A stretch of 64,000 nucleotides of DNA from an uncultured SAR86 cluster bacterium (lineage in GTDB: Bacteria > Pseudomonadota > Gammaproteobacteria > Magnimaribacterales > D2472), in NCBI GenBank assembly GCA_902512655.1, contig CABXJR010000002.1, forward strand, positions 66,867 through 130,866. Reading direction: 5' to 3'. Positions 23,249 through 25,753 of this stretch are shown piece after piece; the first letter of the stretch is position 1, and every line of letters starts with the position of its first letter. The notes beneath the pieces are model-generated. The model saw nothing but the letters and a program-made list of their open reading frames with translations, was not told where the DNA came from and did no database searches. The position numbers and the translations under genes were made by a program.

Positions 23249-24301
23249 ATGGAATCTATTTACCACACAGACAATACAAGAATTGTCGAAAAGTTCGATC
23301 TCATTACGCCTAATGACGTAATTTCTAAATATCCACTTACTGATGATATTTCAAAATTAGTTTATGGAACAAGGAATGAGGCCAGTCAAATCCTTCATGG
23401 GAAAGACGATAGAGTAATTGTTGTGTGTGGCCCTTGCTCAATTCATGATCCAAAATCTGCTCTTGAATACGCCCGCCTATTAAAAGAGGTCAAAGATTCA
23501 TTACATACTAATTTACTTATTATAATGAGGGTGTACTTTGAAAAACCAAGAACAACTGTAGGCTGGAAAGGTTTAATTAATGATCCAGATATTAATGAAA
23601 GCTATGATGCAAACAAAGGCTTGATGCTGGCAAGAAAAATTCTCAGAGACATCACTTCAATGGGGCTGCCAGTCGGAACGGAATTTTTAGATCCAATTTC
23701 ACCCCAATATGTTGCAGATCTTATTTCTTGGGGGGCCATAGGAGCTAGAACTGCAGAGAGCCAATCGCATAGAGAGCTAGCCTCTGGACTTTCTTGTCCA
23801 ATTGGCATTAAGAATGGAACAACTGGCGCTTTAAAACCTGCAATTGATGGCATTCAAGCTGCAAATCATCCGCATGTATTTTTTTCAAATACAAAAGATG
23901 GACGAGTTTCAATATATAAGACCTCTGGAAATTCAGACTCACACATTATTCTTAGAGGTGGAAAAGAGCCTAATTTTAGTTCAGGAGCAATCCAACAAAC
24001 ATTAACAGCATTAGTTGAGGCTGATGTAAATGACTCCATTATGGTTGATGCAAGTCATGGAAATAGTCAAAAACAATTTAAAAAGCAAATTGATGTTGTG
24101 AATGATCTAGCTATACAAATTTCAGCAGGCAATCAAAGTTTAAGAGGTCTGATGCTCGAAAGTCATTTGGTTGAGGGTAATCAAAGTATCACAGAAAGCC
24201 TCACTTACGGTCAAAGCATTACTGATGCATGCATGAACTGGGATGACACTCTTAACTGCCTTAACACAATCAGCGAAGCTGTTGAAAAGAGGCGAGGATA
24301 A
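23249..24301 (+). CDS. aroG: Class I (AroF/G/H-type) DAHP synthase
   Basis: 350 aa. VVCGPCSIHD and KPRTTVGWKGLINDP are class-I DAHP synthase motifs. The isozyme (feedback specificity) cannot be assigned. Confidence 0.92.
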   Translation: MESIYHTDNTRIVEKFDLITPNDVISKYPLTDDISKLVYGTRNEASQILHGKDDRVIVVCGPCSIHDPKSALEYARLLKEVKDSLHTNLLIIMRVYFEKPRTTVGWKGLINDPDINESYDANKGLMLARKILRDITSMGLPVGTEFLDPISPQYVADLISWGAIGARTAESQSHRELASGLSCPIGIKNGTTGALKPAIDGIQAANHPHVFFSNTKDGRVSIYKTSGNSDSHIILRGGKEPNFSSGAIQQTLTALVEADVNDSIMVDASHGNSQKQFKKQIDVVNDLAIQISAGNQSLRGLMLESHLVEGNQSITESLTYGQSITDACMNWDDTLNCLNTISEAVEKRRG

Positions 24302-25120
24302 TTGAAAGAAGACTTATTTACTTTCTCCATTCAAGAAGCAGAAACATTGGGCATAGAATGTGCTGTTGTTCTGGCTGCCGCTAAAACAATTAAAACTAAA
24401 ATATTTACGCCAAGCGAAATAGCAACAAGCCTTAAAGAGAAGATTCCTTTTTTAGAGAGCGAGGAAATCCTTAAGCATATAAAGAGATTAATTGATCTAA
24501 AATTAATCCCTTCGGAGCCAGTCTCCAAAAAAAATGAAGATTCTCGAAATAAAAATCTTTATTCTTTAAAGCTACCTTCCAATAACCTCAATGCCGGAAA
24601 AAGAAAGCTTGATTACTCTTGGGCCCCTTCTATTCAAGCATTTGAAGTCTTGGGTATGGGCAAGATTAATAAAGAATTTATTGAGAGCAAAGTGAATGAG
24701 TTCAAAATGTATTGGTTAGAAAAAAATCAAGTTAGGGATAACTGGAATGTATTATTTGTAGATTTTATTCGTAGAGAGTGGGTCAAAGAAAACTCTGAAA
24801 ATAAGGGTTTGCCTGTCTGTATCGATGAAAGCTGGACGCCTTCTTCTGATGCTTTTGATATTTTAGAATTAGCCAATGTTTCAAAAAATGATGCATTAAA
24901 ACACTTGAAGGAGTTTATACTCTACTGGAAAGAAAATGGAACCGCTCTGAGGTCTTGGAACTCAAAATTTGTAGATTTTGTTAAACGCAAAGAGTTGATC
25001 GGTTCTTATGAAGAAAAAAATGACAAAAAAACTTACAGACATAATGAACCAGGAGAGTTTTCTCAAAAGTTCACAGACAGAACGAAAGATGACTCCTGGG
25101 CAGAAAATCTCGAACTCTGA
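24302..25120 (+). CDS. Protein with two tandem DnaT-like (primosomal ssDNA-binding) domains
   Basis: 272 aa, with a TTG start immediately after the aroG stop. It has two internal repeats: YSWAPSIQAFEVLGMGKINKEFIESKVNEFKMYWLEKNQVRDNWNVLFVDFIRREW and ESWTPSSDAFDILELANVSKNDALKHLKEFILYWKENGTALRSWNSKFVDFVKRKE. Both resemble the E. coli DnaT C-terminal domain (DWQPDADFIRLAALWGV...[25 protein letters not shown]). Confidence 0.55.
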   Translation: MKEDLFTFSIQEAETLGIECAVVLAAAKTIKTKIFTPSEIATSLKEKIPFLESEEILKHIKRLIDLKLIPSEPVSKKNEDSRNKNLYSLKLPSNNLNAGKRKLDYSWAPSIQAFEVLGMGKINKEFIESKVNEFKMYWLEKNQVRDNWNVLFVDFIRREWVKENSENKGLPVCIDESWTPSSDAFDILELANVSKNDALKHLKEFILYWKENGTALRSWNSKFVDFVKRKELIGSYEEKNDKKTYRHNEPGEFSQKFTDRTKDDSWAENLEL

Positions 25121-25664
25121 ACGAAGAAGCTTTATTGAAGCAATTGATAATCTTTTTTTAAAGCTGGAGCTTTCCTATCATTATCAATTTTATAAAGTCT
25201 TTGGGACTGATCACAGGCTCAAAGAAGCAAAAAAGCTTTGGGCAGGAAGCTTAAAGCAATATCCAGCTGAATGCATCAATGCTGCAGTTGAAACGGTGAT
25301 TCAATCAAATGATTATCTCCCAACTCTTACGGAAGTCCTTAAAGCATGCTCAGGATCAATGGGTTCAATAAATATTCCAACTCCGCAAGAAGCATTTGTT
25401 GAAGCTCAGAAATCTTCATCACCAAGGCAAAGCTTTCCTTGGACTCACCCCATTATTTATTGGGCAGGAAGAGAGCTTGGCTGGGATTTAATTAATTCTC
25501 AAAATAATAATACTTTTCAAGCTTTTTCAAAAACCTATATGCGCCTGGTCAAAGAAATGAAATCTGGAAAAGAATTTAAAGTTGTACCTAAAGAACAATT
25601 AGATGCCTTGGAGCCTTTAGATATAGATTTATTGGAAAAGCTTAGAAAAAAACACAACATCTAA
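25008..25664 (+). CDS. Phage-lambda replication protein P-like protein (chromosomal)
   Basis: It is colinear by eye with lambda P. IDNLFLKL...AKKLWAGSLKQYPAECINAAVETVIQSNDYLPTLTEVLKAC...FPWTHPIIYWAGRELG corresponds to INGVFSQLL...IRRQWVLAFRENGITTMEQVNAGMRVARRQNRPFLPSPGQFVAWC...YPWKSNAHYWLVTNL. The start is ambiguous (ATG 25008, 25020, 25044 or 25089). It overlaps the upstream ORF. Confidence 0.6.
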   Translation: MKKKMTKKLTDIMNQESFLKSSQTERKMTPGQKISNSERRSFIEAIDNLFLKLELSYHYQFYKVFGTDHRLKEAKKLWAGSLKQYPAECINAAVETVIQSNDYLPTLTEVLKACSGSMGSINIPTPQEAFVEAQKSSSPRQSFPWTHPIIYWAGRELGWDLINSQNNNTFQAFSKTYMRLVKEMKSGKEFKVVPKEQLDALEPLDIDLLEKLRKKHNI

Positions 25665-25666
25665 AA

Positions 25667-25684
25667 TGTAAAGTGTACTTTACA
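25667..25684. promoter_or_regulatory. Perfect TyrR/PhhR-box consensus (TGTAAA-N6-TTTACA); also a 7-bp-stem hairpin
   Basis: The sequence is TGTAAAgtgtacTTTACA, located 70 nt upstream of the RND adaptor gene start. Function is untested. Confidence 0.35.
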
Positions 25685-25753
25685 AAAAAGATGAACTATA
25701 ATTCACCCCGCTTGTCGAAATAAAAATAGCGTAAAAATTATACAAAATAAGAA

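Follow-up and report, generated by a model that had tools for sequence, protein, structure and literature searches.

A two-gene locus in an uncultured SAR86 cluster bacterium (contig CABXJR010000002.1) bears on how the replicative helicase DnaB is loaded in bacteria without DnaC/DnaI or DciA. The locus occupies positions 24,302 to 25,664 of the 64,000-nucleotide stretch of DNA analyzed here (the window) and comprises two overlapping open reading frames (ORFs), dopC and dopE. The first-pass annotation, made from the letters of the window, had proposed a host-maintained helicase-loading or replication-restart module, a proposal with which the profile matches, the synteny, and the missing dciA and dnaC are all consistent. 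We put at roughly 0.8 the probability that the two genes are orthologues of dopC/dopE, which a common ancestor of SAR86, the Cellvibrionales, and some Oceanospirillales acquired from a lambdoid phage, and that they work as a helicase loader. Brezellec et al. (2017, PMC5509034) described a resident pair in Cellvibrionales and dciA-less Oceanospirillales, with dopC as a lambda-O-like head joined to a DnaT C-terminal domain and dopE as lambda-P-like, and suggested that it represents a third type of loader for the replicative helicase. This is the domesticated lambda O/P proposal mentioned in the first-pass annotation, which left unsettled whether the SAR86 pair belonged to that family.

The downstream protein, DopE, is recognizable as a P-type loader by both profile and fold. 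It matches the Pfam family PF06992 (Phage_lambda_P) at 32.8 bits against a cut-off of 26, over profile positions 2–159 of 162. A second match, with an E-value of 1.1e-17, is to PHROG 109 (“P-like helicase loader”). The colinearity with lambda P that had been noted by eye is thus borne out by both searches. The top Protein Data Bank (PDB) match of an AlphaFold2 (AF2) model of DopE (predicted local distance difference test score, pLDDT, 82) is lambda P itself (9oa1_Z) in the DnaB6-P5 complex solved by cryo-electron microscopy, with a Foldseek probability of 1.00, an E-value of 5.5e-3, 210 aligned columns, and a TM-score of 0.43. The model also matches 9oa2_V (probability 0.97), and its N-terminal domain matches G39P of SPP1 (1no1) with a TM-score of 0.78. 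At the other end of the protein, a disordered linker leads to a C-terminal helix, predicted to correspond to the lasso or grappling-hook helix of lambda P that binds the DH-LH interface of DnaB. In lambda P this helix spans residues 211–227 and, as argued by the authors of the structural study, is probably the first element of the protein to engage DnaB stably (PMC12661323). None of the reduced SAR86 versions of the system has lost the equivalent segment of DopE.

The upstream protein, DopC, begins with a helical domain of winged-helix-like character, which a linker connects to two DnaT-type domains; a conserved tail closes the protein. Pfam PF17948 (DnaT DNA-binding) is matched in two stretches, for which the protein as a whole scores 110 bits (cut-off 25; E 4.4e-32), and the repeats are 37% identical to each other over 57 amino acids (aa; BLASTP E 1e-14), which substantiates the two internal repeats of about 55 aa first noticed in the 272-aa ORF. 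The whole AF2 model matches the C-terminal domain of DnaT (6aeq and 4ou6; Foldseek probability 0.9), a match not tied to either repeat; a profile search of PDB sequences gave a weak DnaT match (E 0.5), and NCBIfam gave no match for either member of the pair. In the model the N-terminal domain forms four helices (pLDDT 67–85) with weak winged-helix matches in the PDB, to Fur/PerR and forkhead proteins (Foldseek probability 0.2–0.4). DopC aligns colinearly, from a common start position, with the DopC proteins of SAR86, Porticoccus, Cellvibrionaceae, and Spongiibacteraceae, and D263, W266, and A267 of the tail are invariant in all 18 aligned sequences, which range from SAR86 to Cellvibrionales.

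The duplicated DnaT domain had been called unusual, a description that did not survive comparison with the family, in which tandem domains are the norm. Most Cellvibrionales and Oceanospirillales proteins carry three, Thalassocella carries four, and two high-GC metagenome-assembled genomes (MAGs) carry one. Relatives within SAR86 are referred to here by codes for family and genus (f1–f4; g3, g6, g8–g10) and for genome and locus (G and L). DopC of family f1 has two DnaT domains, one of three having been lost. Family f3 retains a degenerate extra repeat between the head and the two DnaT domains (L105 4025–4984 and L095 4028–4984); the counterpart of this segment in Cellvibrionales DopC is DnaT repeat 1, its own W-x-P and Y-W signatures are gone, and, as read from the alignment, it documents the reduction from three repeats to two in SAR86.

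Membership of the DopC/DopE family was established with a DopE profile scanned against 185,579 species genomes. The nearest DopE proteins outside SAR86, at 29–38% identity, come from Porticoccus litoralis, Oceanobacter kriegii, Saccharophagus, Cellvibrionaceae, Halieaceae, Spongiibacteraceae, and Thalassocella. In each of these relatives a DopC with DnaT domains is encoded directly upstream of dopE on the same strand, and these DopC proteins have in common with SAR86 the N-terminal motif S/F-S-x-x-[IL]-A-x-x-[IL]-G-[LI]-E-x-A and the invariant D-x-S-W-A. A maximum-likelihood tree that includes few phage sequences separates the cellular DopE proteins from seven phage or viral P proteins with moderate support (91/76) and leaves SAR86 f1 and f3 unresolved as one clade. 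On the nearest relatives, the motifs, and the tree, we assign the window pair as the SAR86 orthologues of DopC/DopE. SAR86-type dopE genes, at 85% and 67% identity, also lie on contigs L042 (CAXQNQ010000204.1) and L058 (PCAW01000055.1), whose MAGs are labeled Mesoflavibacter profundi and Methanobacteriota archaeon, respectively; these are probably mis-binned SAR86 contigs.

The pair is the sole recognizable helicase-loading system of the genome, because DciA, DnaC/DnaI, PriB, PriC, and a separate DnaT are all absent. DciA (PF05258) was found in 0 of 41 genomes (this one and 40 relatives), with seven control genomes positive; the absences reported here rest mainly on 17 relatives more than 90% complete. 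Candidate DnaC matches (PF01695) were rejected: the match in this genome, a 437-aa frame, is DnaA, confirmed by sequence, and the equivalent best matches in relatives are likewise DnaA. Other weak PF01695 matches fall in frames of about 320, 420, and 810 aa, too long for DnaC, and presumably represent other AAA+ proteins, a class assignment read from frame length alone. Sub-threshold “PriB” matches proved to be the single-stranded DNA (ssDNA)-binding protein SSB with its EEDIPF tail. The DnaT domain occurs in DopC alone. DnaA, DnaB, PriA, and SSB are present, so that of the proteins listed for searching in the first-pass annotation, priA was recovered and dciA, dnaC, priB, priC, and separate dnaT were not.

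Both genes are resident and under purifying selection. Throughout the genus, and again in family f3, the locus retains the order rluB-scpB-scpA/aroG-dopC-dopE-MFP-RND-xseB, and core-gene neighbors surround every locus examined; between f1 and f3 the neighbors are 32–61% identical, and DopC and DopE about 31–36%. Among genomes at least 85% complete, DopE is present in 47 of 48 from f1 and 23 of 25 from f3. DopC occurs in 99 of 104 genomes of the order, including all 57 of high quality, and a DnaT-domain search returns a single gene per genome, which is dopC. Ratios of nonsynonymous to synonymous substitution (dN/dS) against ten loci of the genus are 0.06–0.15 for dopC and 0.09–0.18 for dopE, compared with 0.04–0.08 for aroG. 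The pair is therefore syntenic rather than sporadic in f1 and f3, and the early impression that it is no obvious prophage remnant holds on synteny, phage-free surroundings, and dN/dS alike. Searching 50,697 phage records with DopE and DopC by tblastn gave no match at E 1e-3; phage relatives were reached via the Porticoccus DopE only, and a scan of IMG/VR returned one distant viral relative at 27% identity. A replication origin at dopC was considered and ruled out: neither iterons nor DnaA boxes were found there, and dopC is far from dnaA in relatives with closed genomes (190–1084 kb versus about base 500).

Other SAR86 lineages carry smaller versions of the system. In genus g10 and in genome G077, DopE is 143–147 aa long: the W-[ST]-H-P middle domain is missing, and the C-terminal helix follows directly on the N-terminal half. 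Besides the two loci listed in Table 1, this short form occurs at L104, L106, L108, L112, and L113; its carriers are several independent single-cell and metagenome genomes, five further single-cell genomes among them. Families f2 and f4 keep aroG-dopC-MFP, and in 12 of their genomes (91–97% complete) no dopE was found by the Pfam P profile, by a SAR86 profile, or by a broad profile at E <= 1 (positive control, 1.6e-61); DciA and DnaC are also absent from both families. Their DopC proteins run past the family's own S-S-W motif and a linker of about 20 residues into a tail such as KPRSSKKKIHSRLQELKEKHRL, which can be aligned to the end of DopE, KPLSSEKQKARLEGIKKKYL in f3 and LLEKLRKKHNI in the window (...LQELKEKHRL versus ...LEKLRKKHNI). 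Beyond the two examples in Table 1, such proteins are encoded at L118, L119, L121, L122, and L129–L133. The terminal motif, defined after the sequences had been seen, is present in 11 of 11 f2/f4 DopC proteins and in 1 of the 1,711 six-frame ORFs of the genome studied here, that one being DopE. A hidden Markov model (HMM) of DopE tails gave E-values of 0.012–0.17 on 4 of the 11 fused proteins, and the homology rests on about 12–20 residues, for which position and motif count are a stronger argument than the tail HMM. The simplest reading of the alignments is that an in-frame deletion fused the putative DnaB-binding helix of DopE to DopC in f2 and f4, where the fusion might be the sole loader. 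On a judgment slightly short of even odds, a loader of phage origin has been pared down in nature step by step, and SAR86 lineages preserve the stages, from the two-gene form through a DopE without its predicted DnaB-contacting middle domain to a DopC plus the last helix.

How such a loader might operate can be drawn largely by analogy with lambda P; what we infer is the binding of DnaB and of ssDNA, the division of labor, and all of the protein contacts. The C-terminal helix of DopE would wedge into the DH-LH interface between DnaB subunits, the middle domain would sit on the C-terminal tier of DnaB, and the N-terminal half would hold several copies together, such that the DnaB ring might open and become placeable on single-stranded DNA. 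DopC, for its part, would bind ssDNA via its two DnaT domains, hold DopE or DnaB via the conserved acidic/aromatic tail, and direct a DopE-DnaB complex either to the DnaA-opened origin or to stalled forks bound by PriA.

The reduced forms invite a different weighting of the two partners, in which DopC is the core, the body of DopE is an accessory that serves efficiency or regulation, and the C-terminal DnaB-binding helix is the only indispensable element of DopE. We hold this tentatively, at odds appreciably short of even. Its attractions are the universal presence of DopC in high-quality SAR86 genomes, the loss of the DopE core from f2 and f4 with a matching helix at the end of their DopC, the loss of the middle domain alone in g10 and G077, and the near-uniqueness of the terminal motif in the present genome. 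Were the fusion the sole loader, a DnaT-type ssDNA binder and one DnaB-wedging helix would be enough to load a replicative helicase, and DopC, not DopE, would be the indispensable core of the system. Against this stand the purifying selection acting on the whole of DopE in f1 and f3, the chance that f2 and f4 have a replacement loader that escapes recognition, and the shortness and post hoc definition of the tail match.

It is improbable that the pair serves restart only, reloading DnaB with PriA at stalled forks in place of PriB-DnaT-DnaC, with loading at oriC either loader-free or carried out by an unrecognized protein. The possibility was raised by Brezellec et al. (PMC5509034), and it draws on the DnaT-type domains of DopC, DnaT being a restart primosome protein, and on the presence of PriA in genomes where PriB, PriC, and DnaT are absent. 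However, full-length PriA is missing from two f3 genomes (G026 and G032, genera g3 and g8; 96–97% complete), in which the best matches are other helicases; the sister genera g6 and g9 have PriA, and dopC-dopE is kept in all four genera. The pair is independent of PriA because g3 and g8 keep it without the full-length protein, and another initiation loader was found in none of the 41 genomes. Very improbable is a pair that plays no part in host replication, whether as the decaying remains of a prophage or as a decoy that counters phages by titrating their replication proteins. The phage-type character of both domains favors such a reading, and phage protection as a side benefit was a speculation of Brezellec et al. 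(PMC5509034), but order-level synteny, one copy per genome, strong purifying selection, and the lack of phage neighbors argue against it, and streamlined genomes of about 1.2 Mb rarely retain such debris.

Several observations weigh against DopC and DopE being a captured helicase loader. At 72% completeness, the genome cannot by itself carry the absences, which depend on the more complete relatives, and DciA, being small and divergent, might have escaped detection. The match to lambda P is modest (32.8 bits; Foldseek TM-score 0.43, with a model that is flexible and has several domains), and a profile search of PDB sequences missed lambda P itself, its best weak match being G39P (E 0.03). Two SAR86 families, f2 and f4, live without the DopE core, so that DopE is either not strictly required there or reducible in function to one helix. 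Furthermore, the lambda-O ancestry of the DopC head, which the 2017 paper tied to lambda O through an HHpred match of its N-terminal helix-turn-helix to HTH_36 (PMC5509034), was not reproduced: no Pfam match to this domain was obtained at E <= 1, and hhalign comparison with four phage O-like proteins gave a nonsignificant probability of 0.5%, leaving that ancestry neither shown nor excluded. Finally, experimental work on any DopC or DopE was not found in the searchable literature.

The start of dopE sets the extent of its overlap with dopC. Of the candidate start codons, ATG 25020, codon 5 of the ORF that opens at 25008, is the sole one that every locus of the genus shares; ATG 25089, the choice of many gene callers, is replaced by ATT in two relatives. 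Other f1 genera start dopE at the equivalent position, and Cellvibrionales DopE also has an N-terminal extension. Translation of dopE most likely begins at 25020, and therefore 101 nucleotides shared with dopC would be read in two frames, the same DNA encoding the D-x-S-W-A tail of DopC and the N-terminal segment of DopE. In comparisons with ten loci of the genus, synonymous divergence within the overlap falls to 0–0.27 in the dopE frame and to 0.12–0.65 in the dopC frame in nine of the ten (1.18 in L060), versus 0.2–2.6 in the flanking single-coding parts, where it exceeds 1.1 in most comparisons. Overlaps of dopC and dopE at Cellvibrionales and Oceanospirillales loci measure 68–107 nucleotides.

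Upstream, the stop codon of aroG (TAA, 24299–24301) is followed at once by the TTG start of dopC, as had been observed in the first-pass annotation. The two genes are probably one transcription unit because they abut with zero gap; the adjacency is kept in all four SAR86 families, and no promoter or terminator signal above chance was found between the genes. The wider window bears out the description of the flanks as housekeeping, with rluB-scpB-scpA and aroG upstream of dopC, MFP-RND-xseB downstream of dopE, and no phage genes seen on either side. A near-perfect palindrome, TGTAAAGTGTACTTTACA, lies at 25658–25693 of the window (core 25667–25684), 3 nucleotides past the dopE stop and upstream of the MFP-RND genes; it could mark the end of the aroG-dopCE unit. 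Coordinates are collected in Table 1.

Table 1. Features of the dopC-dopE locus and of reduced forms in other SAR86 lineages; positions refer to the window unless preceded by a locus code.
Feature	Position	Strand	Details
dopC (ORF1)	24302-25120	+	272 aa, TTG start
dopE (ORF2)	25020-25664	+	214 aa from conserved ATG 25020 (most likely start); frame open from 25008; alternative starts 25008, 25089
DopC N-terminal domain	24302-24520	+	about residues 1-70; conserved FS.E.AE.LG.E.A...L ... F....I......L..L.LI
DnaT-type ssDNA-binding domain, repeat 1	24608-24802	+	PF17948, E 2.0e-15 (G000:C2:91474-91668)
DnaT-type ssDNA-binding domain, repeat 2	24821-24991	+	PF17948, E 2.6e-16 (G000:C2:91687-91857)
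DopC C-terminal D-x-S-W-A motif (DDSWA)	25088-25102	+	from alignment of 18 DopC
Dual-coding overlap, 101 nt (most likely)	25020-25120	+	shared by the DopC tail and, in a second frame, the DopE N-terminal segment MTKKLTDIMNQESF...
DopE C-terminal helix PLDIDLLEKLRKKHNI	25614-25661	+	AF2: helix at residues 179-188 of the 191-aa form, after disordered linker
aroG (DAHP synthase)	23249-24301	+	upstream neighbor; context, outside the module
Short DopE	L136 1848-2288	-	G063, genus g10
Short DopE	L137 1898-2326	-	G077
f2 DopC with fused tail	L117 757-1848		G028
f4 DopC with fused tail	L123 1222-2031		G033

Set beside known systems, DopE resembles lambda P (6BBM, 9OA1, 9OA2) and the P-like loaders of the Pseudomonas phages Ab31, PAJU2, and PAE2, which belong to the same Pfam family; with lambda P it shares a colinear predicted domain order and a terminal helix after a flexible linker. 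Unlike lambda P, dopE is chromosomal and vertically inherited, and it has no tblastn match at E 1e-3 among the phage records searched. Its partner is not a Phage_rep_O initiator, and the partner gene contains no phage origin. The Phage_rep_O domain was found in the O-like control from Ab31 and not in DopC, and dopC is devoid of iterons, on which grounds a lambda O-type initiator was rejected. E. coli DnaT resembles DopC in its C-terminal ssDNA-binding fold and in the position of its gene just upstream of a loader gene (dnaT-dnaC). However, the ssDNA-binding domain of DopC is repeated, its head is winged-helix-like, its partner is P-type rather than the AAA+ protein DnaC, and PriB is absent. 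No match to the N-terminal region of DnaT was found in DopC, no search having been aimed at that region with its own model. DopC was accordingly rejected as an E. coli-type DnaT, given the duplicated domain, the unrelated head, and the missing PriB. The VdhL1/VdhL2 systems of Vibrionaceae offer a parallel in that a virus-derived loader gene with a lambda-O-like neighbor has replaced dciA (PMC11087808). VdhL is nevertheless a different protein family in which PF06992 is undetected, and its replacements are recent and repeated, whereas SAR86 represents a single, old fixation event; in vitro tests exist for VdhL1 (PNAS 2024, PMC11087808), whereas DopE is a proposed loader.

The closest comparison is with the published DopC/DopE themselves. 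Cellvibrionales and Oceanospirillales pairs have the same gene order, usually with overlapping genes; their DopE combines a PF06992 lambda-P-like region with a conserved C-terminal helix; their DopC proteins share with SAR86 the N-terminal motif, the DnaT-type domains, and the D-x-S-W-A tail; and they too are resident in prophage-free contexts, in genomes without dciA or dnaC/dnaI, with neither iterons nor DnaA boxes in dopC. The pair itself is thus of an already known kind, and for the window alone the result is confirmatory. The SAR86 proteins differ in being shorter and more divergent (about 30% identity) and in having two DnaT domains instead of three, with a degenerate third in f3. SAR86 is not mentioned as a host lineage in the main text of PMC5509034, and papers linking SAR86 to helicase loaders were not found in the searchable literature. 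Placement of the pair against aroG and upstream of an MFP-RND pump is a new context and is specific to SAR86: of the 43 loci searched, none of those outside the lineage showed it. Also new are the most likely start of dopE at 25020, with its 101-nucleotide two-frame stretch, and the further reduction in f2 and f4, which lack dopE and whose DopC carries the last helix of DopE. Because SAR86 is among the most abundant bacteria in surface seawater, fixation of the pair there shows that the system reaches well beyond a handful of cultivated genera, and the SAR86 series, small proteins from streamlined genomes, supplies concrete constructs for mapping the needed parts of a lambda-P-type loader.

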